Sequence record: SRR9188676_1426
Strand: one strand, 5' to 3'
Length of the DNA: 47,175 bases
A program made the position numbers and the translations under genes. Each line of letters starts with the position of its first letter. The stretch's first letter is position 1. Of this stretch, positions 2,589 through 24,489 are shown one piece after another. The notes beneath the pieces were generated by a model. The model saw nothing but the letters and a program-made list of their open reading frames with translations, did not search any database and was not told the DNA's origin.

Positions 2589-5500
2589 CTAAATCTCTTT
2601 CTCTGCAACGGTATATAAACGCACTGGACCTAATAAGCCTGAGGCTAGTAATGGGTCAGTTTTCTGGAAATGTTTCCAAGCAGAAAAAGTAATTCTTTGA
2701 CCTTTTTTCGTTTGATTATTTTTATACCATTCTGGAAAATTCAAAATAAATTTATGTGGACTATAAGTATTTTCTTCTGGCAAATATTCATCACCAATCA
2801 TACGATTTGGCCAAAGGTTTGTAACTGCAATTTCTAGTAAATTCTCTCCTTGCTTTAAAGCACTTGTCAATTCCACGACAAAGGGTTCTTTCCAAGTAAG
2901 TGCCAGATATTTACCATTGAGTTTTACTTCCGCCAATACTTCTACAAGACCCAAATTCAAGAAATAACGTAAATGTTTAGCATTTTTATTGAGTGAAAAA
3001 TGAAAGCTTTTATGATAATTTGCAGTACCTGAAAAATGCCTTACACCAAAGTTTTCATGCAAATGCAATGATTGTAAATTGGCTAATTCAATCGAATCTG
3101 GCGCACCTAATCCTTTAGGAAAATTGATTTTCCAAGCTCCATCCAAATTCAATACTTTACAACTTGCTACTTGTGCTAAAGTACTTGTTTGTGTTTTAGT
3201 CTTTGCTTGATATTTCCCATTTTGCCAAAAAAGCATTTTAGTTTTTCCTTTTTTTGAAGCTTCAAAAGTAATTGGAAAAGTAATTTCTGATGCTGGTAAA
3301 CCTTTCTTAAATAATACTTTTACAGATTCTTCATCCAGTGCTTTTTCTATCAATTCGGGGCGAGTATAATTTCCTTCAAATTGACAAATAAATTGTTCTT
3401 CTGTAGGACTTGCCCAAAGTCCGGGATGAACCATTTTGTTCGAATCTGTTTCTTTAATGGCTAAAGTATTCTCTGCCAATATTCCATTTATGTATAATTG
3501 GGCTTTGGCATTTTGATAGACTAAAGCGAGGTGTGTCCAGCCAGAAATTGGTTGATTTGCAAACACGACATCAAGTAAAGCAGCATTTGCACGTTCAAAA
3601 ACTCTAACGCCATTTTGTCCAACAGAAAGCCCAACGGTGTAATGTCCTTCTGGATAAAGACCTGTAGTTTTTGGCGAAAAAATTAGCATACTTTTCCCTC
3701 TGTGAGCAAAAGTATCAGGTTTACACCAAGCCGTAATCGTGAAATTATTTTGAACAGATTTGAAAGTAGCAAGCTGATTTACAAATGGTTTTACCTCAAG
3801 AATCATTTCATTATTGAATAAAACACTTTGAAAAGAAAGCTTTTTATCAGCACGTCTGAAGAATACAAATAGCGCTTGAGCAGGAGCAAAATTTAGTGTC
3901 ATTTGAATACGACCATCAGACAAATTCTGATAAATTGGATAATGATATTTTTGTCCCGTTTCAGCATCCCAAATTTCAGGGACAAGATTTTTTACGTTGA
4001 AATTAGCAACAATTTGCTCCGCTTGTCTTTTATGATTTCCTAAAAAATAATACGTTCCTTCTGCTAATTCTTTATGAATATAATGAATCGTAGCTTCTGG
4101 TTGAAGTGCCGTATATTCAAAATCAGGCAATAATTTTAATTGCTTGAAAACATTTGTTAAAGTCGTTTGAGTATAAATTATTCCTTTTCCAAAACTCGTG
4201 ATTGTTTCTTTACTTCTCCCTAACAAATTAGCTGTTAGTGTATTATTTTCAAATTCTTGTGATAACCTTCCCGCTTCTGGATTCACTTTCCCAAGTACCA
4301 GCAATCGCATTCCAGCTTTGACAAGTACTTCAATTTTTAGCAAAGCTTCATTAGAAATTATACTGTTTGGCAATATTGCCATAACACGGTACTTCATTCC
4401 ATGTGGTAAAAAAATTTCATTATTTTGAACGGAAAGACGATTCATCAACACAGATTTACCAATTACATCACCCGCATAACCTCTTGGTAAAAATGTACTA
4501 ACATCTGGTATCCCCGATTCAGGACTTTCACCTTTATAAAAACAAACATCCATCAATGTCTGCCCTTGTTGTAAAAGATATTGACAGCGTGTTAAATACT
4601 CCGTCCAGCCTTTTGCTTGGTTTGTCCATGTTGAATTTCTGTCGAAATGTGTTCCAAATGGCCCCATCGTCATCGCAGGTACTCCAACACGATAAGGTTG
4701 GTGAACAAACACATGAAAAACCAGTCGATTGATACCAATACTAAAAAAACGGTCGGCTTGGGCTTTTAGGGCGTAAGGATATTCTGTCCATTTTGCAGTA
4801 AGTGGCATTCCAGTGTAAGCTTCGGCAGCTATTACTTTTTGTCCATAAGCATTTCCAATAGATACCGCTTGACGACTCGTTAAATCACTTCCGTAAATGT
4901 ACCTCGTCCAAAATTCAGCCATTGGTACATCTAAAAATTGACTAATCGCTAAACTATCAAGATTACCATCGCCATAAGGTTCGGCATGATAACTTAGTTG
5001 ATTTTCATGGCATTTTTTCTGAAAATGTGCATAATAATTTTCAGTCAATAATGCAGTTTGCGTTTTACGAAAATCCCATAAAAATGCTTCTGAACTAGCT
5101 ACACTATCTACAATTCTCCCTCCTGCTAAAACAGGTAAAAACGGAAGAATATCATAATTACAATGTTTTTTAAAATCAAACGGAAATGTTTTTGTCCAAT
5201 TTTGTTTGCCTGCTTCCCAACTATCTGTCGTAAATCCTTTGAAACTATTGTAAGGTTTTAAAAGAGTAATAATTTTATTCAGAAAGTGTTCAAAATGAAA
5301 ATCAAGCGCTTTTTTATTGAATTTATCAATTTCTAAACCTGCTCCTGAATCTGGATGAGCAGCAGTTTCTTCTCCTGTTGTTGTATGACCAATGCGTAGA
5401 ATTGTCCAATTTCCGATGGGTGCTTCCCAAATTAAACGTCCGTTGGCATCCATTTTATCACTGATGTCAATAATTTGAGTAGAAAGAATTACTTCATTTT

Positions 5501-6551
5501 CAGCTACTGAAGGATTTACGCCTGAAACATCACCATGTGTAAAGTTTGTTTTACCCGACCAACCCGCCAATCTTGGTGAAGTATGTAGTTCTATTTCAGA
5601 CAAGTAAGTAGCTGAGCTACAAGACAAGCGATAGTATTTTGCTTCTATTTTTTCAAAGCTCAAAGACGAAGGCGTATCCATTTCTCGCAATTCAGGCAAA
5701 CGAATTTGTCCGATTGTTTGAAATTGTTTGCCATCGAAAGAATACTCCAATTTCACCACAGGCGGATGGTCTCGTGGACCATCAAATAAATCTTTGGGTG
5801 TTTCAGCTTTACGATTGATTGTGATAGAACGAGCTTCGAAAGTATTTTTAAAAATCAAAGTAAGCGTTGCTTCATTGTTTTCTGGCTCAATTCTTATTTT
5901 CGTTTCAGGATTTTTATCCAGTAAAATTTGAAAGTCTATCGCTTTTCCATTGAGCAATATTGCTTGTAATTGCTCTTTCATCAATGTTTTTTCAACGGAT
6001 AAAGCTGGATAAGCAATCAAAAAAGCATCTTCATAATAATCAAGTTTGGCAAAAGGTTTGGGTAGTAAAGTATCTATTTTACCTGTAGAATGTTGAAGTG
6101 TTTCCGTCCAAACAAGTTGTTGCATACTCATTTCTGGTGTAATCCAAGAACCTCCTGTGCCAGAATAACCGGGAGAATTATGAATCATTAAACTCATTCC
6201 CAAACGATTTGTTTCTTTAGCAGCGTGTTCTGTTGCCTCAAACCATTCTTTTGACGCATAATCGACAGCACCACGAGGCATTCCGACTGCATTGTTAAAA
6301 CATAAAGCTCCACCAACGCCCATTTTGTGCATTGCTTCAAGGTCGAGCGTGATTCCATCCTTTGTAATATTTCCATTCATCCACTGCCAAAATACCCAAG
6401 GTCTGGCAGTTTGTGGAGGGTTTTTAAATTGAAGAAATAATTTATCCCCAACTTTTTCAGTCAATAGTTCTCTCGCAAATATTTGCTGGTTATTCAACAT
6501 CAACCCTGTTGAAACAAAACTCGTATTTTTTAAAAATGCTCTTCTTTCCAT
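2589..6551 (-). CDS. GH106 alpha-L-rhamnosidase-like glycoside hydrolase with Tat signal and inserted LamG-like domain
   Basis: ERRAFLK twin-arginine motif; PWVFWQWMNGN, DSWEAG, AEPYG, PMAEFW, AAEAYT, GINRLVFH and VTNLWPNRMIGD motifs typical of GH106. Confidence 0.85.
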   Translation of the reverse strand: MERRAFLKNTSFVSTGLMLNNQQIFARELLTEKVGDKLFLQFKNPPQTARPWVFWQWMNGNITKDGITLDLEAMHKMGVGGALCFNNAVGMPRGAVDYASKEWFEATEHAAKETNRLGMSLMIHNSPGYSGTGGSWITPEMSMQQLVWTETLQHSTGKIDTLLPKPFAKLDYYEDAFLIAYPALSVEKTLMKEQLQAILLNGKAIDFQILLDKNPETKIRIEPENNEATLTLIFKNTFEARSITINRKAETPKDLFDGPRDHPPVVKLEYSFDGKQFQTIGQIRLPELREMDTPSSLSFEKIEAKYYRLSCSSATYLSEIELHTSPRLAGWSGKTNFTHGDVSGVNPSVAENEVILSTQIIDISDKMDANGRLIWEAPIGNWTILRIGHTTTGEETAAHPDSGAGLEIDKFNKKALDFHFEHFLNKIITLLKPYNSFKGFTTDSWEAGKQNWTKTFPFDFKKHCNYDILPFLPVLAGGRIVDSVASSEAFLWDFRKTQTALLTENYYAHFQKKCHENQLSYHAEPYGDGNLDSLAISQFLDVPMAEFWTRYIYGSDLTSRQAVSIGNAYGQKVIAAEAYTGMPLTAKWTEYPYALKAQADRFFSIGINRLVFHVFVHQPYRVGVPAMTMGPFGTHFDRNSTWTNQAKGWTEYLTRCQYLLQQGQTLMDVCFYKGESPESGIPDVSTFLPRGYAGDVIGKSVLMNRLSVQNNEIFLPHGMKYRVMAILPNSIISNEALLKIEVLVKAGMRLLVLGKVNPEAGRLSQEFENNTLTANLLGRSKETITSFGKGIIYTQTTLTNVFKQLKLLPDFEYTALQPEATIHYIHKELAEGTYYFLGNHKRQAEQIVANFNVKNLVPEIWDAETGQKYHYPIYQNLSDGRIQMTLNFAPAQALFVFFRRADKKLSFQSVLFNNEMILEVKPFVNQLATFKSVQNNFTITAWCKPDTFAHRGKSMLIFSPKTTGLYPEGHYTVGLSVGQNGVRVFERANAALLDVVFANQPISGWTHLALVYQNAKAQLYINGILAENTLAIKETDSNKMVHPGLWASPTEEQFICQFEGNYTRPELIEKALDEESVKVLFKKGLPASEITFPITFEASKKGKTKMLFWQNGKYQAKTKTQTSTLAQVASCKVLNLDGAWKINFPKGLGAPDSIELANLQSLHLHENFGVRHFSGTANYHKSFHFSLNKNAKHLRYFLNLGLVEVLAEVKLNGKYLALTWKEPFVVELTSALKQGENLLEIAVTNLWPNRMIGDEYLPEENTYSPHKFILNFPEWYKNNQTKKGQRITFSAWKHFQKTDPLLASGLLGPVRLYTVAEKEI

Positions 6552-6603: not shown

Positions 6604-8532
6604 TTACTTCAAATCCCAATAAACGACATAACGTTCACGATGAATGTCGTATAAAGGACGAAGTGTTATTCCTTCTTTTGACGTTTTGAAAGCGAGTGGT
6701 TTTCCAGCCAAAGGTTTAATATCATTTTCTGGATGTGCTTTATCAATACTCAAGATTTTCACTAAATCGGTTGGAACTTTATAATTGTAAGTATAATAAT
6801 CGTTGTAAAGTGAAGGGTTTGAATAAGGTGCTGGTGTTTCCATTTGTGCCGTTCCCATTTCGCCTGCTAATACAATTGGTCCATACAAAATGGCTATTTT
6901 ATCAGGATTATCGTTCGTCGCCACAGTCGTTAAATTCATTGGGAAATTTATTTCTACACGGTCGTTCGCTTTCCAAATACGAGTAATAGCAATATAACTT
7001 CCAGCAGATTGTTTGATTTTCATTGGCTTTCCGTTGACTATAACATTGACAGCACTTGCCCAAGAAGGATAACGAAGATTTAAAGTAAGTAACTGATTTT
7101 CGGCTGATTCAATAGTAAAAATCGTTTTACCTGATTCAGGAAAATTGGTTTCTTGTTTGATTTTAAAGCCTTTTTCTTGCCAATTCAAGCTTGAAGCAAT
7201 GAATAAATTCACATAAAGTGCGTCTTTACTATGATAATAAATGGCTTCTCCGTATTTAGCGTGATTCTCAAAACCACTTCCCACACAGCACCAAAAAGAG
7301 TTTTCGGGAGTACTATAAACTTTGTGCGCACCAGCCATCATCGGTAAAAAGTAAGCGACCATTCCCGTTTGTGGGTCTTGTTGACCAAGAATATGATTGA
7401 AAAGTGCTTTTTCGTAATAATCTGCATATTTTACATCGGCAGTATGCGAAAACAAATGACGAGTCAATTTAAGCATATTATAAACATTGCAAGTTTCGCC
7501 CGTGAAGCCTGTTAAATGTTGAGAAAGCTCATCTGCTTTAAAGAATTTCTCTTTATCACTATTACTTCCTGTTGCAAAAGAATGATGATTGATGACTGTA
7601 TTCCAGAAAAAACTTGCCATTTCATCGCCTTGTCCTTGTCCTTCTAGTTCAAATTCACGAGTTACTCCCAACAATTTTGGAATATAAGTATTGGCATGTT
7701 TTTTCTCCAAAATATCTTTCCCTTCTTTCAAAGGCTCAAGCATTTCATTATGATAAAAAAACTCCGCTAACCATTTATATGTTGGTTTTCCTGTAATGGC
7801 ATAAAGATTATAAAATGATTCATTGATACCTCCAAATTCATTACGAAGCATAATTGCTCTTTGCTCAGGAGTAACGGGTTGAAGCTTTTTATAAGCCCAA
7901 TCGCCCATTTTTTGAACGACTTCCAAAGCTTGCTGATTGTTACAATACAAGTATTGGTCAATCAGACCTGAGACTATTTTGTGCAAAGTGTACCAAGGAG
8001 CCCACACTCTTTTTCCTGCAATGTTTCTATTGATTAATTCTTGCGGATAAGCACTTAAATAACCCTCTTGATTCAATACTTTTTGTACTTCTGCCAAGCC
8101 AGAAACAATGCTATCTGATTTTATTTTAAAGCGTTCATCGCCCGTTTGGGCATACATTAATGCCAAACCAGAAAGCAAATGTCCAGTAGAATGTCCACGC
8201 AAATCACAATCTAACGACTCCCAACCGCCATATTTTTTAAGCTCAAAATAACCACCTTCATTAGCATCATAAATACCTGCATTATTTCGAAAACTGTGTA
8301 AAAGTCTTTTGGTATCCAACGATAAAATCCAGCTTTGTTCACGTAACATATTCTCTTTAAAGCGACCATCCAACAAACGAATAGCGGATAAATCAAAGCT
8401 ATAAACAGCCGGTTGCAATTTATCTTGCAAAGCAAATTTTCCATCGTGTTGACCGGGATAATGAGATTGGGCAAAAATACGCCCTTGAAAACATGAAAGT
8501 ATAATGATAAAAAAGTACGTGTGTTTCTTCAT
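6604..8532 (-). CDS. GH127/GH146 (DUF1680) beta-L-arabinofuranosidase-like cysteine glycosidase, secreted
   Basis: Signal peptide from ATG 8532 (MKKHTYFFIIILSCFQGRIFA); GWE, EFGG, HANT, GETCNVYNMLKL and FWCCVGSG motifs. Confidence 0.85.
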   Translation of the reverse strand: MKKHTYFFIIILSCFQGRIFAQSHYPGQHDGKFALQDKLQPAVYSFDLSAIRLLDGRFKENMLREQSWILSLDTKRLLHSFRNNAGIYDANEGGYFELKKYGGWESLDCDLRGHSTGHLLSGLALMYAQTGDERFKIKSDSIVSGLAEVQKVLNQEGYLSAYPQELINRNIAGKRVWAPWYTLHKIVSGLIDQYLYCNNQQALEVVQKMGDWAYKKLQPVTPEQRAIMLRNEFGGINESFYNLYAITGKPTYKWLAEFFYHNEMLEPLKEGKDILEKKHANTYIPKLLGVTREFELEGQGQGDEMASFFWNTVINHHSFATGSNSDKEKFFKADELSQHLTGFTGETCNVYNMLKLTRHLFSHTADVKYADYYEKALFNHILGQQDPQTGMVAYFLPMMAGAHKVYSTPENSFWCCVGSGFENHAKYGEAIYYHSKDALYVNLFIASSLNWQEKGFKIKQETNFPESGKTIFTIESAENQLLTLNLRYPSWASAVNVIVNGKPMKIKQSAGSYIAITRIWKANDRVEINFPMNLTTVATNDNPDKIAILYGPIVLAGEMGTAQMETPAPYSNPSLYNDYYTYNYKVPTDLVKILSIDKAHPENDIKPLAGKPLAFKTSKEGITLRPLYDIHRERYVVYWDLK

Positions 8533-8549
8533 TTTAGAATGCAATAAAT

Positions 8550-8579: not shown

Positions 8580-8819
8580 ATGAAAGCAGCTCAAACGATT
8601 TATGATGATGTTGCCGATTTTATCGCCAGCATGGATCCAAGTAAGGTGATAGCATTTCAGCCTACTCAAAACAACCAAAAGCGACTTGATTTTTTATTAG
8701 ATAAACAAATAGAATCAGGGTTAACTCATGCTGAAAAAGATGAACTTGACCACTATCTTGTTCTAAATCGTATAATAGGGCTTGCTAAGGCTCGTGCCTT
8801 AAAACTCATATCTGCATGA
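8580..8819 (+). CDS. Small hypothetical protein, putative antitoxin-like partner of the HNH nuclease
   Basis: 79 aa, helical (RLDFLLDKQ...LTHAEKDELDHY), translationally coupled to the HNH ORF by ATGA overlap. Confidence 0.7.
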   Translation: MKAAQTIYDDVADFIASMDPSKVIAFQPTQNNQKRLDFLLDKQIESGLTHAEKDELDHYLVLNRIIGLAKARALKLISA

Positions 8820-9222
8820 GAAAAACGATTTCTACCCTTATAAAAAAACAGGTTGCTCTACGTGCGAATTTTCATTGTGAATATTATCTCCAACCCGAAC
8901 AAGTTTCTTTTTTCTCTTTTCACATCGACCATATCATTAGCATTAAACATGGCGGAAACTCTTCCTTCAATAACTTAGCCTATTGTTGTCCAGATTGCAA
9001 TCATGCTAAGGGAAGCGATATTGCAAGTATTATTCAAAAGGATATTTTAGTTCGATTTTTCAATCCTAGAAAAGATTCTTGGAAAGACAATTTTGATATA
9101 ATTGATGGTGCAATCATTGGAAAAACTGAAATGGGAAAAGTAACAGAACGTATTTTAAGTTTAATGAATTAGAAAGATTAATTTTCAGAAAACAGTTAAT
9201 AGCATTAAGGCTTTATCCATAG
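8816..9222 (+). pseudogene. HNH endonuclease, probably inactivated (CEYC->CEYY and a frameshift near the 3' end)
   Basis: HIDHIISIKHGG...NLAYCCPDCNHAKGSD...FNPR motifs; ORF stops at 9172, but a family-like tail FKFNELERLIFRKQLIALRLYP* runs in another frame from 9154 to 9222. Confidence 0.7.
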
Positions 9223-9354: not shown

Positions 9355-10842
9355 TTAAGAGTTCTCCTGAATAATATTTTTCCAAGCCCTGAAGGCTGCA
9401 TCAATTTTCACTTGATTGTTTTCTTGTGGTAATACTGCTTGGGCTTTTCCAAACAAGACTTTGAGTGAATCTACCGATTCAAAAATTTGTACTCCTAAAC
9501 CAGCCATCAAAGCTACACCCAAAGCAGAAACATCTGGCATACCTTTGTTTACGACGGGAATATTTAATAAATCAGATAAAGTGCTCAATACAAAACCGTT
9601 TGAGGTCATTCCACCATTTACCATTAATTCTTGTAAATGGATTTCTGAATCTTCTTCCATTGCCAAAACAACATCTTTTATCTGAAAAGGAATAGATTCT
9701 AAAGTAGCCCGAACAATATGATTTTTATTTGTTCCAAAAGTTAGACCATGAATTGATGCTTTGCGTTTCATATCCCAATAAGGTGCGCCCAAACCACTAA
9801 AAGCAGGAATCAAATAAACACCTCCGTTGTCTGGAACAGATGTTGCCATACCTTCAGTTTGCTTACTTTCTGCAAATAAACCTAATTCATTTTTCACCCA
9901 TTCTACACTTGCTCCGCAACTTACAATGGCACCTTCTAAAGCATAATCTATTCTTCCTTCAGTACTCCAACAAATGGTGGTAATCATACCATTTTGTGAT
10001 TTTTGAGGCTTATTACCAATGTTCATTAAAATTGAACAGCCAGTTCCTAAAGTAGCTTTGGCAGTTCCTGCTTCAAAGCAACCTTCGCCAAATGCGGCAG
10101 CGTGACTGTCGCCAATCATGCCAGAAATACTGATGGCTTCTGTAAAAATTCCGCCAAAAGTACTTGTTCCAAAATTGGCGGAAGATGCTTTTACTTCAGG
10201 AAGATTAAGTGTTGAAAGATTGAAAGTTGAAAGTAAATCTTTATCCCATTCAAGCGAATGAAGGTTGAAAAACAATGTTCTTGAAGCGTTGGTATAATCC
10301 GTCGCAAATACTTTCCCACCCGTTAATTTATACAATAACCAAGTATCAACTGTTCCAAAAAATGCTTTCCCTTCGTCTATTACTTGTTTGATTGCTGGTT
10401 TGTTTTCATACAACCAAATCAATTTTGTTCCTGAAAAATAAGGGTCGATGATTAAACCTGTTCTTTCTTTAATATTTTCGGCTAAACCTTCTTGATTCAA
10501 ACGTTCGCATACTTGTACCGAACGCTTACATTGCCAAACGACGGCATTATGTAGAGGATTCCCATTTTCATCCCAAAGAATAAAAGTCTCTCTTTGATTA
10601 CTGATGCCACAAGTTTTGATTGCTGATAACTCAAAACCTTTTTCCTGAAAATCGGCTAAACAATTTTTAACGGCTGTCATGGCATTATCAAAAATGCCTT
10701 CTGGGTCTTGTTCTACAAAACCATCTGCTAAATATTGTGTTTGAAGTGGCTCTGAAGCTCGTGCCATCACCTGACCTTTTGCATCAAAAATCAAAGCTTT
10801 GGTACTACTTGTTCCTTGGTCAATTGCCAAAATATATTGCAT
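9355..10842 (-). CDS. FGGY carbohydrate kinase, glycerol-kinase-like (candidate apulose kinase)
   Basis: DQGTSSTKA, NQRET, DPYFSGTK, TDYTNASRT, PAFSGLGAPYW; GDSHAA and TGCS replace GlpK GDQQAA and TGCF. Confidence 0.85.
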   Translation of the reverse strand: MQYILAIDQGTSSTKALIFDAKGQVMARASEPLQTQYLADGFVEQDPEGIFDNAMTAVKNCLADFQEKGFELSAIKTCGISNQRETFILWDENGNPLHNAVVWQCKRSVQVCERLNQEGLAENIKERTGLIIDPYFSGTKLIWLYENKPAIKQVIDEGKAFFGTVDTWLLYKLTGGKVFATDYTNASRTLFFNLHSLEWDKDLLSTFNLSTLNLPEVKASSANFGTSTFGGIFTEAISISGMIGDSHAAAFGEGCFEAGTAKATLGTGCSILMNIGNKPQKSQNGMITTICWSTEGRIDYALEGAIVSCGASVEWVKNELGLFAESKQTEGMATSVPDNGGVYLIPAFSGLGAPYWDMKRKASIHGLTFGTNKNHIVRATLESIPFQIKDVVLAMEEDSEIHLQELMVNGGMTSNGFVLSTLSDLLNIPVVNKGMPDVSALGVALMAGLGVQIFESVDSLKVLFGKAQAVLPQENNQVKIDAAFRAWKNIIQENS

Positions 10843-16715: not shown

Positions 16716-17681
16716 CTACTGATTATTCAATAATTTTAAAGCCTCATTTTTGATTCCGATTCCCGAAATGCCATAATGGTTAAAAATCTCATTTTGCGAA
16801 CCACTTACGGTATATTCATCAGGTAATCCAATAATTTTAAAAGGCTTAGTTAACTGATTTTGAAGTAAAAAAGAAGCACAAGCTTCACCCAAACCACCAT
16901 AGACGCTGTGTTCTTCTACTGTAATAATTGCTTTACATTGTTGTGCATATTGAGCAATCAGTTCAGTATCAAGTGGTTTGATGGTGTGCATACTTATCAC
17001 GGCGGCATCAATATTTTCTGTTGCCAATTGTTCTGCGGCTTGCAAAGCTGGATATACTGCTTCGCCAGTGGCAATGAGTACAATATCTTTTCCTTCTTTG
17101 ATGACTCTTCCTTTTCCAAACTCAAATTTGGTATTGGTTTCGCTTAATAATGGCATTACTTTTTTGCCAAAACGAATGTAAAAAGGCGAATCAGTTGCAG
17201 CAGCTTGACGGATAGCTTCAGCAGTTTCAAAATTATCGGCTGGTGCAACAACCGTAAGATTATTGATGGCACGCATCACCGCATAATCGTGCAAACTGTG
17301 GTGCGTACTTCCTAAAGCGCCATAACTTACGCCAGCACTGATACCGATAAGTTTTACTGGATTATCGGAGTAAGCGACATCGTTTTTGATTTGCTCTAAA
17401 GCTCTTGCTGCTAAAAAACAAGCTGGCGAAACAGCAAATACTTTTTTGCCAGATGAAGCCAAACCTGCCGCCATGCCTACTAAATGCTGTTCGGCGATGC
17501 CTACTTCTACGATTTGTTTTGGATATTTTTGTCCGAATGGGACTAACTTTCCTGAACCTCTTGAGTCACTGGTTACTACCAATAAATTCTTGTCGGTTTC
17601 TGCCAATGTTTGGAGTACTTCTGAAAAAATATCCAAATTGGCTTTATCTTTTGTAGCGATATTATCAATTGTTGCTCCCAA
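16716..17681 (-). CDS. Transketolase C-terminal subunit (candidate apulose-4-phosphate transketolase B)
   Basis: EVGIAEQHLVGMAAGLA, EQIKND, GSTHHSLHD, TIKPLD, TVEEHSVYGGLG; TTG start. Confidence 0.9.
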   Translation of the reverse strand: MGATIDNIATKDKANLDIFSEVLQTLAETDKNLLVVTSDSRGSGKLVPFGQKYPKQIVEVGIAEQHLVGMAAGLASSGKKVFAVSPACFLAARALEQIKNDVAYSDNPVKLIGISAGVSYGALGSTHHSLHDYAVMRAINNLTVVAPADNFETAEAIRQAAATDSPFYIRFGKKVMPLLSETNTKFEFGKGRVIKEGKDIVLIATGEAVYPALQAAEQLATENIDAAVISMHTIKPLDTELIAQYAQQCKAIITVEEHSVYGGLGEACASFLLQNQLTKPFKIIGLPDEYTVSGSQNEIFNHYGISGIGIKNEALKLLNNQ

Positions 17682-17702: not shown

Positions 17703-18536
17703 TTAAGCTAAAGAAAGACTTTCTTGAACGCTTGTCAATTCTTCAATAGCTTGCTGATATTGTTCTGGAGAAGGTACTCCATGATGCCATTTCAAGGTAT
17801 TTTCCATGTAACTAACACCTTTCCCTTTTACGGTTTTGGCAATAATTACACTTGGTTTTCCTACTTCAAAAGGCAAAGCGTTGAAAGCTTCTTGAAGGGC
17901 TTCAATATTATTACCATCAATAATTCTAACTGCCCAGCCGAAGCTTTCAAACTTTTTGTCTAGTGGTTCGGTATTACATACTTCATGCGTTGGTGCAGTA
18001 ATTTGTAAGCCATTCAAATCAACAATGGCACATAAATTATCTAATTTATAATGCGCTGCTGAAAGTGCGGCTTCCCAATTACTTCCTTCGGGCAATTCGC
18101 CATCGCCTAGAAGGGTAAATACTTTATAATCAACATTATCTAATTTAGCAGCTAGGGCATTTCCACAGCTCATCGAAAGTCCGTGACCTAAAGCACCAGT
18201 ATTTTGCTCAACGCCATTTACTTTTTTGGTTGGATGACCTATATAATAAGATTTGTACTGACAAAGTGTTTCTAAGGCTGATTCTGGGAAGAAACCTTTG
18301 TCGGCTAAAACGACATACAAAGCTTCTACACAATGTCCTTTACTTTGAATGTATCTGTCACGAAGCCCAGATTTAAAATTCTCTGGATTTACGTTCAGTA
18401 CATCATTATACAATACATTCAAAATATCAATACAAGAAAGTGAACCACCTGTATGCCCAGCTTTTGCTTGGTAAATGTATTTCAGTATTTTCTTGCGATA
18501 TTCAACTGATTTAAGTTGTAACTCTTTGGTTGTCAT
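17703..18536 (-). CDS. Transketolase N-terminal subunit (candidate apulose-4-phosphate transketolase A)
   Basis: GHTGGSLS, DRYIQSKGH, TGALGHG, TPP motif GDGELPEGSNWEA...N, TVKGKG. Confidence 0.9.
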   Translation of the reverse strand: MTTKELQLKSVEYRKKILKYIYQAKAGHTGGSLSCIDILNVLYNDVLNVNPENFKSGLRDRYIQSKGHCVEALYVVLADKGFFPESALETLCQYKSYYIGHPTKKVNGVEQNTGALGHGLSMSCGNALAAKLDNVDYKVFTLLGDGELPEGSNWEAALSAAHYKLDNLCAIVDLNGLQITAPTHEVCNTEPLDKKFESFGWAVRIIDGNNIEALQEAFNALPFEVGKPSVIIAKTVKGKGVSYMENTLKWHHGVPSPEQYQQAIEELTSVQESLSLA

Positions 18537-18638: not shown

Positions 18639-20240
18639 CTATTTTCTAATGGTAATGATTACTCTTTGATAACTGGTCAATTCTGGTGTTCCATTGTCAA
18701 CTGCTTCAAGAATCAAATGAATGGTTTGTCCTACCAAAGCTTCTTTGGGTATTTGAACTTCTGTTTGAATTGCATTAGTATTCAAGATATTCACCACAGG
18801 CTGCGATGTTCCTCCTTCAAATTGCCACCATTTTACAGCTACTTTATTGCCATCAGGGTCTGAAACAAATCCATTCAATCGAATTTTTTCACCCGGTGCT
18901 GCCATGATACTAAGTGGACCTTCTACTCTAACAATCGGTTGATGATTTGCACCTGAAAATTTCGAGGTGACAGTCCATTGCATTCTTGTAGCAAAATCTT
19001 TTTGTGCTTGTGGGAAAAAATTAGGATAAAATGCCTTTTCTTTAGACGAATTATTCGCATTAGTAAGCACATTCGCCATCGCATTTGCACTGGTATCCGT
19101 CAATGAGAAGAAAGAAACTGAAGCGTCATTTTGTGCAATTGAACGTCCACCCCAACCACCATAAACACCATGTTCATAAGCTCTTAAGCCATTTCCAAGC
19201 ATGTTCATAAAAGTATGATTGTCGCCTTCGCCCAACCATGAACCTTTTTCTTGGACAGGCATCCATACGGCATAACCCATCTTTTTTAGTTCCTCGTTTG
19301 TATAACCTGATAAGCCAAAGTAATCTAAAATATCACCTTTTACCATTTGTTTTCCGTCACCCCAAACTCTGTATAAGTTCCCCAATGAACCACGACTACT
19401 AATATTTTCCTTCATCCAAGTAGCGGTCAGAAAAGTAGCGTCTTCCTTTTTCGCATTCAATTGAGCACCATATCCATAATTCGGACTATTTTTGAACTGG
19501 CGATATTCGATGTTGGGCCAATTGGGCTTTATATAAGTTGCATAAGTATCGTCTTGGTCACCAGAAGGAAGTAATACCACTTTTCTGGCTATTTTTTTTT
19601 GAATGGCTTCCCACTGAACAGTATATTGATATTGCTCCTGAATAGATTTTAATGCTCTGGCAATCGTACTTTGTCCACCCCAAGCAGTGATAAATAACTG
19701 ACCCGGTTTATCATCCAAAATAAGCGATTTGATAAGTTCTGAACCAGGAGAATCCTTTGAAATATCTCCATCAAATTCAATATTTCCAAATCGAATTTTC
19801 GATTTTAAATATTCAGGACTTGGATAATTTGCATTGTGAATTTTTAGATTCGGGTATGATTTTTCATAAGCTCCCACAATGTCGTGAATAAAATGTTCGT
19901 CTTTTGCCCAACGCCAAGATTCACAAGGACAAAGGTTTAAACCAAAACGACTGTATTCTCTTCTTGGCACCGACCATTTTGTTCCTTTTCCATCACCTGT
20001 CCAGTGAAAACCGCTACTTGCATAAATCAAGCCTTCTATTTCGAGGTCAGTACTATAAAGCAAAAAGCGAATCAACGAGTTGTTATCATCTAATTCAGGG
20101 TCTGCCGTAATAACAATTCTCGGTTTTTTTTCTTTGCTTAAAGTCTGTGCAAATCCTTCTTTGTGAAGAACAATTACAGTCATCAGTACGACTAAACTGA
20201 AAAGCATTGATTTTTTAAAATAAATAGCGATTGTTCTCAT
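18639..20240 (-). CDS. Secreted DUF1593 (Sde182 nucleoside-hydrolase-like) protein with C-terminal Ig-like domain
   Basis: Signal peptide; ITADPELDD, AWGGQST, EGD, GGWGGR, ANHQP, SDPDG, HLILEAVDNG..LTSYQRVII. Confidence 0.85.
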   Translation of the reverse strand: MRTIAIYFKKSMLFSLVVLMTVIVLHKEGFAQTLSKEKKPRIVITADPELDDNNSLIRFLLYSTDLEIEGLIYASSGFHWTGDGKGTKWSVPRREYSRFGLNLCPCESWRWAKDEHFIHDIVGAYEKSYPNLKIHNANYPSPEYLKSKIRFGNIEFDGDISKDSPGSELIKSLILDDKPGQLFITAWGGQSTIARALKSIQEQYQYTVQWEAIQKKIARKVVLLPSGDQDDTYATYIKPNWPNIEYRQFKNSPNYGYGAQLNAKKEDATFLTATWMKENISSRGSLGNLYRVWGDGKQMVKGDILDYFGLSGYTNEELKKMGYAVWMPVQEKGSWLGEGDNHTFMNMLGNGLRAYEHGVYGGWGGRSIAQNDASVSFFSLTDTSANAMANVLTNANNSSKEKAFYPNFFPQAQKDFATRMQWTVTSKFSGANHQPIVRVEGPLSIMAAPGEKIRLNGFVSDPDGNKVAVKWWQFEGGTSQPVVNILNTNAIQTEVQIPKEALVGQTIHLILEAVDNGTPELTSYQRVIITIRK

Positions 20241-20297: not shown

Positions 20298-21707
20298 CTA
20301 ATGCACGTACACTTCCCAGCCCATGTAATTACTTAATGCTTCTTTCAACACGCCAGCCGTTTTTGAAGCATTCATTACTACGTGATGTTCAAAACCATTT
20401 CTACAAACGTATTGCATTAAACCTTGTAAATCATTGATTTGCGCTACAGCTCTATTACCAAAAGTTTTTAAAGCATCATCTGTCAATTCACCTTCACCAA
20501 TATAGGCTTTGATAATTCCTTTAGGGTCATCTGTACTAATTCTTCCGAAAGTCAAAGGCATTGCTGGCGTGCGTCCGTCTAAAGCACCATAAGTATTTTC
20601 AACGCCAACTGAAGTTCCTAATATTGGAGCATTGCTGATTTGAATATCTGGCAAGAATGATTTCGCCCAGTTTCCACAGTGGAATAAAACGCATTTTTCG
20701 TCATCATCTGCATAATTGTTATTCCAGTCAACCAATGCACTTGGCGAGCCCGAAGCCAGTTGCATGGCGTACATACTTAGCGTTCCTGTTACATCTACTT
20801 CGCAAGCACTTGGTAGCATATTTTCGCTCATGATACTCATACTTGTACAAACATTACAGCCGTAATTTTTCTGTAGGGAAGTCCAACATTGAATGGCTGT
20901 AGCATCTAAAGAGTGTTCTAGCATGAAATTATTCAATACTGCATCTAATTTGGCAATCTGAATCATGGCTTCACTTGGCGTTTTTCCTATCGGTGTATAA
21001 GCCAAAATTTTCTCTAAACGGTCTTTAACGATGGCATCGTATTTTGTCAATTTATTGGCATTTCCGAGAATTTCAGAAAGATCGCAAGTAACGACAGAAA
21101 TGCCATTTCTTTGTAAGATTTTCTCACTATAACGTACCGTATTGAACGCTCCCGGTCTTGCACCGATAGCCCCTATACGTACATTTTTCAAACCACGAAC
21201 TACTTTACAAACTGATAAGAAATCTTGTAAATCCTTAATAAATTCTGCATCGTTCGGACGCATTACATGTTTTGTCGTAAGTGTGTATTTGATACCATAC
21301 TGATACAAATTATTACAAACCGAAATTTTACCACACCAAGCATCTCTTCTACGAGCAACATCCAATTTATCCAAATCGTCTGGATAAGCCTGTACTAAAA
21401 CGGGAACATTCAGATTCGCTAATTTCAAACTATCGGCAACGCCTTTTTCATCACCAAAATTGGGAAGGACTACCCATACGCCAATAATTTCTTCGGCATG
21501 TTGTTTGAATAAATTCGCACATTTTTGGGCTTCTTGAAAAGTTTCTACTCCACCCAACTTAGAAGTATTGCTGTCTAAAACAATTGGATTTATTCCAAGC
21601 GAATGGCAAAGGTCAATTACTTCTACCCTAGCCTTTTCAACCAAACTATCAGGAAAAAAATCTCTATTCCCAATGATAATCCCCAAACTTAATGCAGCTT
21701 TTGACAT
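20298..21707 (-). CDS. L-fucose/L-arabinose isomerase family protein (candidate apiose isomerase)
   Basis: PNFGDE, DAWCGKIS, IQCW, ACEVD, FHCGN, GFEHH motifs of the FucI/AraA-like family. Confidence 0.85.
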   Translation of the reverse strand: MSKAALSLGIIIGNRDFFPDSLVEKARVEVIDLCHSLGINPIVLDSNTSKLGGVETFQEAQKCANLFKQHAEEIIGVWVVLPNFGDEKGVADSLKLANLNVPVLVQAYPDDLDKLDVARRRDAWCGKISVCNNLYQYGIKYTLTTKHVMRPNDAEFIKDLQDFLSVCKVVRGLKNVRIGAIGARPGAFNTVRYSEKILQRNGISVVTCDLSEILGNANKLTKYDAIVKDRLEKILAYTPIGKTPSEAMIQIAKLDAVLNNFMLEHSLDATAIQCWTSLQKNYGCNVCTSMSIMSENMLPSACEVDVTGTLSMYAMQLASGSPSALVDWNNNYADDDEKCVLFHCGNWAKSFLPDIQISNAPILGTSVGVENTYGALDGRTPAMPLTFGRISTDDPKGIIKAYIGEGELTDDALKTFGNRAVAQINDLQGLMQYVCRNGFEHHVVMNASKTAGVLKEALSNYMGWEVYVH

Positions 21708-22050: not shown

Positions 22051-22818
22051 TTATTCGGCAATAATAATTTCTATTTCATTTTTCTCGAAATGCAATTTAT
22101 CATCTTGATTGATTTCGTTGTCGGTAATGATATAATCAATCAGCGACAAAGCGCCCAAACTTGCAAAAGCACTTTTTCCAAATTTGGTAGAATCTGCTAC
22201 CAAATAAGTAGTTTCTGCGGCATCAATCATGGCTTTTTTCACCACAATGTCACTGATACTTGGATACGTCAACCCTGCTTTCAATGAAATTCCAGCCGTT
22301 GCCAAAAACAGTTTTTGGACATTGATTCCTTTAAAAAAATCTGCCGCTTTTTGTCCTGTCAATGATAAGGTGGGTGGTTTAAATTCACCTCCCGTCATAA
22401 TTACTTCTATGCCCGGCTCAGTTCCCAACATCATGGCAATATTCAAAGCATTCGTAATTACAGTCAGATTTCTAAAGCCTTTCAATTTCTTAGCAATTTC
22501 AGTAACAGTTGAACCAGAATCTAAAATAATGGTATCGCCACTCGAAATAAACTCTAAACACTTCAAAGCAATTTTCTCTTTTTGCTGAACATTCAAATCA
22601 TTATGAGCTACAGTAAATTCACGCACATGGTCTTCAATATTTTTCAAATATGCTCCACCGTGTTCTCTAATAACTAAATCATCTTTTTCCAACTTTTCTA
22701 AATCCTGACGAATGGTCACTTCGGTGACTTTAAACAATCTGGCAAGATCAGTTACTTTGGCTAAACCATCTTCTTTTAAGAGGTCTAAAATCTTTTCTCT
22801 GCGCTGATTTGGCAACAT
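22051..22818 (-). CDS. DeoR/GlpR family transcriptional regulator
   Basis: HTH VTEVTIRQDLEKL..REHGGA; LDSGST, VITNAL, LVADSTKFG. Confidence 0.93.
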   Translation of the reverse strand: MLPNQRREKILDLLKEDGLAKVTDLARLFKVTEVTIRQDLEKLEKDDLVIREHGGAYLKNIEDHVREFTVAHNDLNVQQKEKIALKCLEFISSGDTIILDSGSTVTEIAKKLKGFRNLTVITNALNIAMMLGTEPGIEVIMTGGEFKPPTLSLTGQKAADFFKGINVQKLFLATAGISLKAGLTYPSISDIVVKKAMIDAAETTYLVADSTKFGKSAFASLGALSLIDYIITDNEINQDDKLHFEKNEIEIIIAE

Positions 22819-22834
22819 ATTCTTGATATTGAAA

Positions 22835-22865
22835 CAAAGTTAAACGAAACAAAAACAAAAACAAA
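22835..22865 (-). promoter_or_regulatory. Bacteroidota promoter for the deoR operon
   Basis: Minus strand TTTG (22865-22862) - N19 - TAACTTTG (22842-22835), matching the -33/-7 consensus. Confidence 0.65.
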
Positions 22866-22880
22866 AGAAAAATATCGAAA
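22845..22880. promoter_or_regulatory. Putative DeoR operator (phased GAAA/TTTC repeats)
   Basis: GAAA 22846, CAAA 22856, GAAA 22867, GAAA 22877 at about 10-bp spacing, lying across both divergent promoter regions. Confidence 0.5.
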
Positions 22881-22896
22881 ATATTTATTTTACTTT

Positions 22897-22904
22897 TACC
22901 TTTG
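22897..22904 (+). promoter_or_regulatory. -7 element for the divergent DUF1593 gene
   Basis: TACCTTTG matches TAnnTTTG. Confidence 0.55.
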
Positions 22905-22968
22905 TTAAATAAATTAATACCAATTCAATCTTCTATTATTCATATATTTACAAAAATACAATAAACAA

Positions 22969-24489
22969 ATGAAAACAAAAGTAATTCTATTCTTTTTGAT
23001 TAGTTTCTCTTTAGTACTTCAGAGTCACTCGCCCATTCAGGCACAAAAAAGCAATATAAACACAAAAAGCCGTACCATCATTACGACCGATGGAGAAATA
23101 GATGACGTTGATTCTTTCATCAGAATGTTATTGTATGCCAATGAATTTAAGATTGAAGGTTTGGTTTACAGTAGCTCGCAATGGCATTATAAAGGCGACG
23201 GCAAAGGCACAATGTTTATTTCTGAAATGGAAAATACTGCCAAAAGATATGGAAAACGCACAGCTTTACGTTGGCCAGGCACTACTTGGATACAAGAACT
23301 ATTAGCGGAATATGAAAAAGTGTATCCAAATTTATTGCAACATGACAAAACTTTTCCAAGCGCAACTACTTTACGAAAATTGGTAAAAGTGGGCAATATC
23401 GACTTTGAAGGCGAAATGGATAAGGAGACAGAAGGCTCTGAATGGATTAAAAATATATTACTTGATAATAATCCTCAACCAATATATTTACAAATTTGGG
23501 GTGGAACCAATACAGTAGCCCGTGCTTTAAAATCAATCGAAGATACTTATAAAAACACCAGTAAATGGGCCGAGATTTACGACAAGGTTTCTAAAAAAGC
23601 CATTATTTATGCGGTACTCGACCAAGACGCTACTTATAAAAAATATATCGCTCCGAGTTGGCCAAAAATTAAGGTTTTCTATAATTCAGACCAATTTTGG
23701 TGCTTTGCTTATCCTTGGCCAAGAGTAGTTCCAAATGAATTACAAACGTTTTTACGTGGTGAATTTATGACAAAAAATATTATTCAAAATCATGGACCTT
23801 TGCTTGAAAAATATTATGCTTGGGGCGATGGACAAAAACAAGCTGGCGATGAAGAACATACTCATGGCAACATGACAGATGCTCAGAAATATAAAATGAC
23901 CCAATATGATTTTATTTCTGAAGGCGATTCTCCTGCTTATTTTCAGTTATTGGATGTTGGTTTAATGAGTAAAGACCATCCAGAATATGGAGGTTGGGGA
24001 GGCAGAATGGTACAATCAAAAGATAATCCTCATCGTTGGGAGGATGGCAAACATGTAACTGATTTTAATCCATTTACGAATAAACAAGACGCCTCTTTTC
24101 CTCAAACCCGTTGGATTGAAGCCTTGCAATTAGACTTTGCTGCAAGGGCAAATTGGTGTATCAAGCCATTTAAAGAAGCGAATCATGCACCAAAAATTAT
24201 AGTTAAAGGTAATACCATCAGAAAAGTAAAAGCGGGTACTAATATTACTTTAGAAGCTTCGGCAATTGACCCAGATGGAAATGCCGTAGATTTTAAATTT
24301 TGGCAATATCAAGAAGCAGGAACTTCTTCTGAAAAAGCAAATATTGACCAAACCTTACCGAATGCAGCTAATATTAACATTCCTTCTGGATTAAAAACTG
24401 GAGAAACTATTCATATTATTGTAGAAGGAAAAGACAGAGGACAACCTGCTTTAATTCGTTACCAAAGAGTAATATTGACAGGAGAATAA
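22969..24489 (+). CDS. Secreted DUF1593 (nucleoside-hydrolase-like) protein, second paralog
   Basis: Signal peptide; ITTDGEIDD, IWGGTNT, SEGDSP, GGWGGR, ANHAP, IDPDG, YQRVIL. Confidence 0.85.
   Translation: MKTKVILFFLISFSLVLQSHSPIQAQKSNINTKSRTIITTDGEIDDVDSFIRMLLYANEFKIEGLVYSSSQWHYKGDGKGTMFISEMENTAKRYGKRTALRWPGTTWIQELLAEYEKVYPNLLQHDKTFPSATTLRKLVKVGNIDFEGEMDKETEGSEWIKNILLDNNPQPIYLQIWGGTNTVARALKSIEDTYKNTSKWAEIYDKVSKKAIIYAVLDQDATYKKYIAPSWPKIKVFYNSDQFWCFAYPWPRVVPNELQTFLRGEFMTKNIIQNHGPLLEKYYAWGDGQKQAGDEEHTHGNMTDAQKYKMTQYDFISEGDSPAYFQLLDVGLMSKDHPEYGGWGGRMVQSKDNPHRWEDGKHVTDFNPFTNKQDASFPQTRWIEALQLDFAARANWCIKPFKEANHAPKIIVKGNTIRKVKAGTNITLEASAIDPDGNAVDFKFWQYQEAGTSSEKANIDQTLPNAANINIPSGLKTGETIHIIVEGKDRGQPALIRYQRVILTGE

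Follow-up and report, generated by a model that had tools for sequence, protein, structure and literature searches.

A predicted D-apiose uptake and catabolism operon of an Arcicella, with exported glycosidase candidates from two orphan families

Results

A ten-gene operon of apiose-pathway type

In a 47,175-nucleotide stretch of DNA from sequence record SRR9188676_1426 (the window), we examined a locus that an earlier reading of the letters alone (the original prediction) had taken for a complete system of D-apiose release, uptake and catabolism in a Bacteroidota. Its isomerase and its ATP-binding cassette (ABC) substrate-binding protein (SBP) are 99-100% identical to Arcicella proteins. The window was scanned by open reading frame (ORF) listing and by Pfam and NCBIfam profile scans of the ORFs over the 47-kb stretch, and every gene named in the prediction proved to be an intact ORF at the position given for it:

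22051..22818, minus strand: DeoR-family regulator (HTH_DeoR + DeoRC)
20298..21707, minus strand: FucI-like isomerase, candidate D-apiose isomerase in the ApsI slot (Fucose_iso_C only; signal peptide absent)
18639..20240, minus strand: DUF1593 copy a, exported, with an Ig-like C-terminal domain (PF07632 at 5e-61 + PF21027)
17703..18536, minus strand: transketolase N-half, binding thiamine pyrophosphate, AptA-like (Transketolase_N)
16716..17681, minus strand: transketolase C-half, pyrimidine-binding and C-terminal parts, AptB-like (Transket_pyr + Transketolase_C)
15070..16689, minus strand: 4N0R-family glycosidase ('G140L'), exported, candidate apiosidase (DUF5060 + PF13204 'Apiosidase-like' + DUF5605)
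14133..15068, minus strand: CUT2 ABC substrate-binding lipoprotein, RbsB-like (Peripla_BP_4)
13370..13993, minus strand: DUF2291 membrane-anchored importer accessory (PF10054)
11861..13360, minus strand: ABC ATPase with two fused cassettes (ABC_tran x2)
10848..11822, minus strand: ABC permease (BPD_transp_2)
9355..10842, minus strand: GlpK-like FGGY kinase, candidate apulose kinase (FGGY_N/C)
8816..9172, plus strand: small HNH-endonuclease ORF of 118 aa in an 810-bp gap (PF01844 at 2.7e-10)
6604..8544, minus strand: GH146-like (GH127-superfamily) glycosidase, exported (PF07944)
2589..6551, minus strand: GH106 alpha-L-rhamnosidase with a Tat-type signal (PF17132 at 3e-179)
22969..24489, plus strand: DUF1593 copy b, exported, divergent from the DeoR gene (PF07632 at 2e-68 + PF21027)

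The core is a 10-gene minus-strand operon (9355-21707) in the order isomerase, DUF1593, transketolase N-half, transketolase C-half, DUF5060/PF13204/DUF5605 glycosidase, SBP, DUF2291, ATPase, permease and kinase. Intergenic gaps measure 1-139 bp from the isomerase through the kinase, and 343 bp separate the DeoR gene from the isomerase. The co-directional run described earlier thus holds for this core, but it is broken before the GH127/146-like and GH106 genes by the 810-bp gap with its plus-strand ORF.

No SusC or SusD domain was detected by Pfam or NCBIfam in any ORF of at least 100 aa across the window, so the adjacent SusC/SusD pair that serves as the criterion for a polysaccharide utilisation locus (PUL) is lacking here. 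The label 'SusCD-free' describes this window but is not general, as SusC-like genes flank 22 of the 80 related loci analysed below. An Rfam scan of the window returned zero families. A terminator scan found 11 against 13.1 expected in shuffled sequence and was not used; neither was a promoter scan, whose sigma-70 model is ill-suited to Bacteroidota promoters.

The core corresponds to a growth-validated apiose cluster

In the available part of a recent study, the apiose cluster of Escherichia coli SE15 comprises aplK, aptA, aptB and ABC genes; cluster-positive E. coli strains and Pectobacterium grow on apiose whereas K-12 does not, and the isomerase apsI of Pectobacterium is replaced in Escherichia by two oxidoreductases (PMC13001218). 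The SE15 genes lie in the order SDR, SDR, permease, ATPase, DUF2291, SBP, kinase, regulator, transketolase A, transketolase B, where SDR denotes a short-chain dehydrogenase/reductase. The set SBP-DUF2291-ATPase-permease consists of the same four genes in the same order in the window, with identities of 44% (permease), 42% (ATPase) and 36% (SBP), and the kinases are 37% identical. The two adjacent transketolase genes match AptA (N-half, 47%) and AptB (C-half, 40%); the N-half is also 71% identical to a Chondrinema gene and 44% to a Monoglobus gene. Where E. coli has its two SDR genes the window has a FucI-like isomerase.

A tblastn search of plasmids with this isomerase gave 19 records, among which we examined clusters of Rahnella, Klebsiella, Sodalis and Chondrinema. 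The first three share the order SBP-DUF2291-ATPase-permease-regulator-transketolase A/B-'fucose isomerase'-FGGY kinase; their isomerases are 52-53% identical to that of the window and their kinases 70-72% identical to E. coli AplK. Because the FucI-like gene is the sole isomerase in these clusters, we read it as apsI, an equation drawn from their gene content together with the published account of the Pectobacterium pathway (PMC13001218). 'Apiose isomerase' was not used as a source name among the 120 listed matches of the window isomerase, nor among 120 of the Rahnella isomerase. The window isomerase is at least 79% identical across the best 120 Bacteroidota matches listed; no relative of it was found in the PDB, and its only NCBIfam match was a weak one to sulfoquinovose isomerase SftI (89.5 bits against a cut-off of 700).

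In the clusters of E. coli, Rahnella, Klebsiella, Sodalis, Rhizobium and Chondrinema, DUF2291 is likewise flanked by the SBP and ATPase genes. Chondrinema, itself a member of the Bacteroidota, carries the bare core on a plasmid in window order at 33-72% identity, and RefSeq names its proteins 'D-ribose SBP', 'rbsC' and 'glycerol kinase GlpK'; these names bear out the expectation that default annotation would present such loci as ribose, glycerol and fucose genes. We dropped the readings of the locus as a sulfoquinovose, glycerol or fucose system, as their partner genes are absent from the window and the scanned neighbours.

Taken together, gene content, homology, DUF2291 and the kinase signature described below agree with the predicted transketolase-route apiose cluster for uptake and catabolism. 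The likeness to the Pectobacterium/E. coli ST131 cluster (apsI, aplK, aptA/aptB and a CUT2 ABC importer; MetaCyc PWY-8089) extends to the ABC set with DUF2291, the Ser-type kinase, the split transketolase and the FucI-like isomerase. The identities are only 35-53%, however, and the window kinase falls in another clade. The regulator is of the DeoR family in the window and a 'sugar-binding transcriptional regulator' in the enterobacterial cluster, and the window differs further in having a lipoprotein SBP and exported glycosidase candidates embedded in the operon.

The kinase departs from glycerol kinase at a signature position

The window kinase shares 44% identity with E. coli GlpK and 35-37% with AplK, which itself is 39-41% identical to GlpK. 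It missed the GlpK equivalog model TIGR01311 (558.7 against a cut-off of 590.35) and passed the looser subfamily model NF000756. According to the accessible text of one report, the GlpK specificity signature consists of Arg83, Glu84, Tyr135, Asp245 and Phe270 (PMC3245297). Aligned with E. coli GlpK (R-E-Y-D-F), the window kinase reads R-E-Y-D-S. This Ser at the Phe270 position was found in 47 of 47 Bacteroidota operon kinases, the window and Chondrinema included, and in 4 of 4 AplK sequences; the same 47 and 4 also have Ser-His in place of Gln-Gln after Asp245 (Ser for Gln246). All 4 AplK sequences additionally have Leu for Tyr135.

We aligned 154 GlpK-like sequences (140 library representatives and 14 named ones), and found the canonical pair in 101 of them and the Ser/Ser pair in 50; the other 3 have neither. 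In a FastTree phylogeny of the full set the Ser/Ser class fell apart into several clades, and deep support was weak (0.21). In a quick IQ-TREE analysis (LG+G4) of 85 rows, made up of all 50 Ser/Ser sequences, every third canonical sequence (34) and one outgroup, one branch with an SH-like approximate likelihood-ratio value of 99 parted all 34 canonical from all 50 Ser/Ser sequences. Within that tree the window kinase lies in a starred clade of 10 rows and AplK in a separate starred clade of 13. The prediction had made clustering with AplK one of its checks: the kinase does stand outside the canonical GlpKs, but not in the clade of AplK. On these alignments and trees it would not be a glycerol kinase but part of the non-GlpK assemblage that also holds AplK, of which it is no close orthologue.

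The core is conserved across related Bacteroidota loci

A genome scan with the SBP as query yielded at least 565 confirmed relatives, of which the best 80 (73-99% identity) were analysed. The sample thus consists of close SBP relatives from one scan, and Dyadobacter, with 15 of the 80 loci, is overweighted in raw counts. Record titles name Bacteroidota in 79 of the 80 (L-numbers below label the compared loci). A 6.4-kb contig titled as an Acinetobacter pittii metagenome-assembled genome (L036) carries the Bacteroidota operon at 72-82% identity, and the Arcicella SBP sequence recurs unchanged in a protein entry with a eukaryote label ('eukprot'); both seem to be artefacts of binning or contamination.

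Core conservation was counted by tblastn, since ORF calling alone had missed a transketolase half in 4 loci, an artefact. The isomerase and both transketolase halves precede the SBP gene in 71 of 71 loci with at least 4.5 kb upstream, and the same order recurs in every one of them, far beyond chance. The kinase is present in 45 of 60 loci with at least 5.5 kb downstream. The kinase-less Dyadobacter loci (L025, L026, L043, L044, L055-L057, L061, L064, L068, L069, L072, L074, L077 and L080) keep the isomerase, transketolase, DUF1593 and ABC genes but have no kinase gene after that of the permease; Dyadobacter may either encode a kinase elsewhere in the genome or use a different pathway.

Among 1156 neighbour ORFs called, 474 fell outside the window families and formed 286 clusters. 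Pfam was run on 233 cluster representatives, with 46 singletons shorter than 435 nt and 7 antisense artefacts excluded. True GH140 genes (matching PDB 3kzs/5msy at 7e-120, and 8t9w, 'Apiosidase') occur in 7 of the 80 loci, plus one fragment; BT_1020-like propeller proteins occur in 10 and a GH43/BT_3657-like family in 15, while GH141, GH78, GH28, GH29, GH2, GH35, GH39, GH88, GH105-type enzymes and pectate lyases are found in fewer. A Chitinophagaceae/Niabella layout joins many of these on one strand, as DUF6298-GH140-GH43-like-BT_1020-like-isomerase-...-kinase-GH63-like-GH2. With both flanks long, 42 of 58 loci contain DUF1593, the 4N0R-family gene or GH140. The association with rhamnogalacturonan II (RG-II) anticipated by the original prediction is therefore borne out, in that pectin and RG-II machinery accompanies the operon across related Bacteroidota loci.

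RG-II is also the common theme with the B. thetaiotaomicron (Bacteroides thetaiotaomicron) RG-II PUL, which contains the GH140 apiosidase BT1012: GH140, BT_1020-like, GH141, GH78, GH2, GH28 and SusCD genes all occur near the operon in relatives. Unlike that PUL, the window is without SusCD and canonical GH140. B. thetaiotaomicron releases apiose yet secretes it, as far as the accessible part of a preprint states, and the window adds an ABC importer and a cytoplasmic pathway.

Some loci depart from the usual layout. A RuBisCO-like protein and a DUF1537 kinase, a pair that marks oxidative apiose routes, lie directly beside the operon in 2 loci. One is Segetibacter L028, where the pair follows the operon kinase (L028:16385-18978), and the other is L016, where it lies upstream; Segetibacter may thus have two apiose routes side by side. 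The same Segetibacter locus has a GH29 alpha-L-fucosidase gene between the two transketolase halves (L028:7091-8629). In Runella-type loci (L010:6154-6516, L015 and L016) an ORF annotated as '23S rRNA intervening sequence protein' sits between isomerase and transketolase.

Accessory genes vary among Arcicella strains

We compared the window at the DNA level with the two closest Arcicella loci, L008 and L009 (Arcicella gelida DC2W and Arcicella aquatica). A. gelida DC2W is 92% identical over window positions 9291-23067 and has DUF1593 copy a; it lacks exactly copy b (23068-24488) and shares no sequence downstream of the kinase, beyond window position 9291. A. aquatica lacks copy a (window 18543-20306) and retains copy b; beside its kinase, 250 bp from the 3' end of the GH146-like gene are all that remains of that gene (window 6605-6852). 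As presence differs among the window, DC2W and A. aquatica, the GH146-like and GH106 genes and both DUF1593 copies are variable, in contrast to the stable core. The HNH ORF (8816-9172) sits exactly where synteny with DC2W ends. It marks a variable junction and may be the footprint of a gain or loss of the GH146-like and GH106 module.

The original prediction had connected GH127 members with aceric acid linkages, and for the gene in the window this was not supported: its product scores 384 bits against PDB 5opj and 64 bits against 5mqo, and it reaches 107 on the equivalog model for BT1003-type aceric-acid hydrolases (NF049879), whose cut-off is 950. We take 5opj to be a GH146 beta-L-arabinofuranosidase and 5mqo an aceric-acid hydrolase; the window protein is GH146-like. 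The GH106 protein matches PDB 6q2f (443 bits) and 5mqm (398 bits) about equally. GH106 occurs in 1 of the 80 related loci, and the GH127-family matches there are only 23-26% identical. Since relatives lack them and an 810-bp gap with the HNH ORF sets them apart, the GH146-like and GH106 genes are best described as a loosely attached, strain-specific module. They and the second DUF1593 gene are strain-variable add-ons, and the predicted picture of them as parts of one complete system was not supported.

A hydrolase family distinct from canonical GH140 adjoins apiose pathways in three phyla

The gene between the transketolase and SBP genes had been called a 'DUF4038 hydrolase' and likened to GH140. 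Its PF13204 match is modest (64.7 bits, E 1.4e-17) and lies above the gathering cut-off of 26.5. In the PDB its sole relative is 4N0R, labelled 'putative glycoside hydrolase' and a structural-genomics orphan, which it matches over its full length (691 bits) with the same three-domain layout; the GH140 structures 3kzs/5msy, 4qfu and 8t9w were unmatched at E <=0.01. The profile match was thus sustained but the protein is no canonical GH140, its nearest structure being 4N0R. An hhalign comparison of 11 4N0R-family sequences with 7 true GH140 sequences gave a probability of 89.6% (E 1.9e-6, 22% identity, 356 columns). At the place of Asn-Gly-Gly-Asp in GH140, the 4N0R family shows an invariant Asn-Glu pair, and it has an Asp-Glu...Tyr-Glu motif that aligns with GH140. 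By analogy with clan GH-A enzymes, we read the protein as a probably competent retaining hydrolase.

The 4N0R-family gene is present in 12 of the 80 loci, 7 of which have it between transketolase and SBP, and a true GH140 lies within the flanks of only 1 of the 12 (L041). A tblastn search of plasmids returned 92 records, 80 of them from Rhizobium, and two were examined. On pRL12 of Rhizobium johnstonii the gene (40% identity, no signal peptide) lies inside a CUT1 ABC operon that adjoins genes for a DUF1537 kinase, a protein resembling 6-phosphogluconate dehydrogenase (6PGDH), an SBP (608 bits against PDB 5ibq/4ry0), DUF2291, an ATPase, a permease, a Gfo-Idh-MocA oxidoreductase and DhaKL. In Monoglobus pectinilyticus (43% identity, no signal peptide) it directly follows FucI-like isomerase, transketolase A/B and 'glycerol kinase' genes; the isomerase there is much more divergent, 26% identical to that of the window.

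This Rhizobium oxidative apiose locus and the window have in common the RbsB-like SBP, DUF2291, ATPase, permease and 4N0R-family glycosidase. Their catabolic genes differ, those of pRL12 being the DUF1537 kinase, 6PGDH-like, oxidoreductase and DhaKL genes, and its glycosidase is signal-less and encoded in a second, CUT1-type ABC operon whereas that of the window is exported and encoded within the operon. That three phyla and two catabolic chemistries share this hydrolase is the strongest evidence in this analysis that the 4N0R family acts on apiosides. We propose the window enzyme as the best candidate for cleaving the apiosidic bond, in a family distinct from canonical GH140.

DUF1593 proteins as candidate furanosidases or furanose binders

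The two DUF1593 copies are 38% identical to each other and stand apart from the canonical members (Pfam E 1e-105 to 1e-116) of Runella and Dyadobacter, among others. The family alignment shows acidic motifs, D..DD near the N-terminus followed by DQD and EGD. An AlphaFold model of copy a (pLDDT 78, pTM 0.81) had a single whole-fold match in Foldseek, 2yhg (E 6e-33), followed by Ig-like domains; this result is silent on catalysis. We found no literature under the name DUF1593. The only studied member is Sde_0182 of Saccharophagus degradans (PDB 2yhg), which resembles the window proteins in its nucleoside-hydrolase-like and beta-sandwich domains and acidic motifs. It carries carbohydrate-binding modules, whereas the window copies are stand-alone, exported, encoded with a catabolic operon and have an insertion of about 60 residues. 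In the available portion of its description, the Sde_0182 domain keeps a Ca2+ site, is inactive on nucleosides, has no known activity and is thought to be a furanose-binding module (PMC8910321).

DUF1593 genes occur in 33 of the 80 loci, inside the operon in 26, at no fewer than 6 different positions: between transketolase and SBP (22 loci), after the kinase (6), between isomerase and transketolase (2 and the window), between DeoR and isomerase (1), between permease and kinase (1) and divergent from DeoR (3 and the window). In five loci (L023, L037, L047, L060 and L076) a small module of a PF00756 esterase and a DUF1593 gene adjoins the operon, and 3 loci carrying this module also have a PF01156 IU-nucleoside-hydrolase family gene. 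A plasmid search gave 13 records, of which three were examined: no link to apiose was seen for the Pantoea and Clostridium felsineum genes, and pSRC2 of Selenomonas ruminantium has the order rhamnosidase / beta-glucoside phosphotransferase system (PTS) IIABC / DUF1593 / GH1 (L092:9393-10901), which resembles an operon for plant diglycosides.

As apiose occurs solely in the furanose form and bears a 2,3-cis-diol, a role as an apiofuranosidase or apiose binder would be attractive for DUF1593. The two proteins are candidates for a furanosidase or a furanose binder.

An alternative that accepts apiose catabolism by the core is that the 4N0R family, DUF1593, GH146-like and GH106 proteins act on other furanosides or caps, or bind sugar, their co-location reflecting shared service to the use of pectin side chains. 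It would fit the lack of any 4N0R-family or DUF1593 member with a known activity, the DUF1593 genes of Pantoea and C. felsineum outside apiose contexts, the placement of the Selenomonas gene between beta-glucoside PTS and GH1 genes, the variation of accessory genes among Arcicella strains, and the true GH140 in 7 related loci, which makes a canonical apiosidase available to some relatives. Against it, the 4N0R family adjoins apiose pathways of two chemistries in three phyla and shares a common ancestor and aligned acidic motifs with GH140; GH140 accompanies it in only one of 12 loci within the flanks seen, as substitution would predict; and DUF1593 has been inserted into the operon at several independent positions. 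We consider this alternative rather unlikely, and prefer to see the 4N0R-family and DUF1593 proteins as candidates for apiose release or binding.

The substrate-binding protein is compatible with apiose and with ribose

The best PDB match of the window SBP is the Thermotoga maritima ribose-binding protein (tmRBP; 2fn8, 368 bits, about 65% identity), followed by a Thermoanaerobacter protein, Rhizobium etli 4ry0/5ibq (215 bits) and the ribose-binding protein of E. coli (183 bits). As described in the accessible part of the tmRBP paper, the protein binds ribose through ten listed pocket residues, and apiose goes unmentioned there (PMC2630998). All ten are kept in the window SBP, as read from the alignment, and tmRBP (TM0958; PDB 2fn8/2fn9) thus has an identical ribose-contact set; for this reason the sequence of the window SBP does not distinguish it from a ribose binder. 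The window SBP scored 229 on the RbsB equivalog model NF007936, under its cut-off of 337. The 4ry0/5ibq protein keeps most of the same polar pocket set, and a copy nearly identical to it (608 bits), encoded on pRL12 of R. johnstonii, shares 68% identity with the SBP of the Rahnella apiose cluster, so this RbsB-like pocket type also serves apiose clusters. We take 5ibq to be an apiose complex and 4ry0 a ribose complex, and the tmRBP locus presumably contains a FucI-like isomerase, a GlpK-like kinase and a split transketolase. Apiose, ribose or both are candidate ligands of the window SBP, judged from these alignments.

Should the importer carry D-ribose, the DUF1593 proteins might release it from ribosides and the cytoplasmic genes form an unusual ribose route. 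The tmRBP likeness and its conserved pocket point that way, as do the RefSeq names D-ribose SBP and rbsC, the nucleoside-hydrolase-like fold of DUF1593 and the IU-nucleoside-hydrolase family genes near the operon in 3 of 80 loci. Yet neither a PfkB ribokinase nor RbsD was found in the window or, by Pfam, among the 233 scanned neighbour ORF representatives of the 80 loci; the SBP falls under the RbsB cut-off and the RbsB-like fold of 4ry0/5ibq, which matches an apiose-cluster SBP, makes its pocket type compatible with apiose; the linked enzymes are those of the apiose cluster; Sde_0182 is reported to be inactive on nucleosides; and genes for pectin and RG-II enzymes, rather than for nucleotide salvage, surround the operon. 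Ribose or riboside scavenging is accordingly improbable as the function of the locus.

It is most improbable that the same enzyme logic serves another sugar (a rare RG-II or branched sugar, a tetrose, a short ketose, or sulfoquinovose via sulfo-transketolase). The weak SftI match of the isomerase, the moderate identities to the validated cluster (36-53%) and the Monoglobus cassette with its isomerase of only 26% identity would allow it, but synteny with that growth-validated cluster extends to DUF2291 and true GH140 and the RuBisCO-like and DUF1537 pair lie beside the operon in relatives. The sulfo-transketolase sulfoquinovose pathway, which pairs SftI, of the same FucI family, with a transketolase, is kinase-free, which counts against it here, and genes for a sulfoquinovosidase, a sulfonate exporter and a sulfoacetaldehyde reductase are absent from the window and the scanned neighbours, the window having no genes for sulfonate handling. 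Apiose remains our preferred substrate.

Localisation, regulation and surroundings

Signal peptides, lipobox and twin-arginine motif were all read by eye. The glycosidase candidates and the SBP carry N-terminal signals that place them outside the cytoplasm, with a lipobox LTMAC in the SBP and a twin-arginine motif MERRAFLK in GH106; the isomerase, kinase and transketolase have no signal peptide. A large SprA homologue of 2420 aa, a component of the type IX secretion system, is encoded at 35864-43126 on the plus strand, so the organism has this system. No type IX sorting domain was detected by Pfam in the glycosidase candidates or the SBP. The predicted 'secreted' deglycosylation is consistent with the signal peptides, but a periplasmic or membrane-anchored location fits better.

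A DeoR homologue 74-100% identical to that of the window lies directly upstream of the isomerase in most related loci. This repressor family member likely regulates the operon, and we infer a sugar phosphate as its effector.

Bordering the locus, positions 24592-27540 (minus strand) encode a large FAD-linked oxidase fused to an Fe-S/GlpC-like domain. This YdiJ-like protein scores 636 bits, far under the equivalog cut-off; it is kept beside the locus in DC2W and has no evident link to the operon. The remainder of the window holds housekeeping genes (amidase, SLT-LysM, RuvA, SprA, GcvH and others).

Discussion

We conclude that the window probably contains a DeoR-controlled D-apiose utilisation operon of a freshwater Arcicella (Bacteroidota) that works as proposed. 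D-apiose uptake and catabolism is the likely function of the core, and apiose release by the glycosidases of the locus is plausible. Gene content, order, homology, conservation and co-location were observed directly, whereas all activities are inferred from sequence. The original interpretation of an apiose locus is thus supported for its uptake and catabolism core; the GH140 and aceric-acid readings were not supported, nor were GH106, the GH146-like gene and the second DUF1593 gene as stable members.

Several observations weigh against this conclusion. All 15 kinase-less loci are Dyadobacter, and all 15 Dyadobacter loci lack an adjacent kinase. Overall, the window kinase is nearer E. coli GlpK (44%) than AplK (35-37%), the FastTree phylogeny splits the Ser/Ser class, and AplK occupies a clade of its own in IQ-TREE. 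The FucI-like gene is equated with ApsI by gene content, and none of the listed matches bears that name. The 4N0R-family protein is only a remote relative of GH140. DUF1593 occurs in non-apiose contexts elsewhere, and its only studied member was inactive on nucleosides, according to the excerpted report (PMC8910321). The SBP, about 65% identical to tmRBP, keeps the complete ribose pocket. Finally, in the accessible part of a 2026 preprint, B. thetaiotaomicron secretes apiose and most tested Flavobacterium strains do so in place of using it, which would bear on this conclusion if those strains carry the operon.

Pectic fragments of small size that carry apiose (stubs of RG-II side chains, apiogalacturonan from aquatic plants, or apiosyl glycosides) would reach the periplasm through porins or through SusCD systems encoded elsewhere, as the locus has no gene for passage across the outer membrane. 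There the exported glycosidases would trim them, the 4N0R-family enzyme cutting the apiosidic bond, the two DUF1593 proteins acting as Ca-dependent apiofuranosidases or furanose binders and, in this strain, GH106 and the GH146-like enzyme removing rhamnose and beta-L-arabinofuranose caps. The lipoprotein SBP would capture free apiose for import through the CUT2 ABC system, DUF2291 included. In the cytoplasm, the FucI-like isomerase would convert apiose to apulose and the GlpK-derived kinase would form apulose 4-phosphate, from which the split transketolase would transfer a ketol unit to glyceraldehyde 3-phosphate, giving dihydroxyacetone phosphate and xylulose 5-phosphate. This apulose 4-phosphate transketolase chemistry was reportedly described by Carter et al. 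2018.

RG-II side chains are anchored through apiose, a sugar that duckweed and seagrass pectins contain in abundance. Yet the model RG-II degrader is reported to secrete it, and GH140 is the one apiosidase family named in the available parts of the recent apiosidase literature. Little of the literature we found on apiose together with transketolase concerns bacterial catabolism, and none of it Bacteroidota; one paper quotes Carter 2018 as perhaps already mentioning Bacteroides, in the part available (PMC13001218). A more far-reaching proposal, which we offer tentatively as a possibility, is that DUF1593 proteins reuse the Ca-dependent nucleoside-hydrolase scaffold to grip the 2,3-cis-diol and cleave beta-D-apiofuranosides, and that the 4N0R family represents another, so far unrecognised family of apiosidases. 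With the ABC importer, these enzymes would then define SusCD-independent apiose loci, widespread in soil and freshwater Bacteroidota, whose carriers could feed on apiose discarded by RG-II degraders such as B. thetaiotaomicron.

If the apiose reading is right, apiose consumers would make up a large group among environmental Bacteroidota, with at least 565 genomes at species level in the SBP scan, and their genes are misread by current annotation as ribose, glycerol and fucose genes. According to its accessible text, a published genome screen for the apiose pathway demanded at least 40% identity to the E. coli genes, aplK included (PMC13001218), and would probably miss such loci because the window kinase is only 37% identical to AplK. 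There would also be functional leads for two orphan families, DUF1593, with a structure since 2011 and no known activity, and the structural-genomics orphan 4N0R. The operon would, furthermore, provide a genetic marker predicting which strains take part in apiose cross-feeding.

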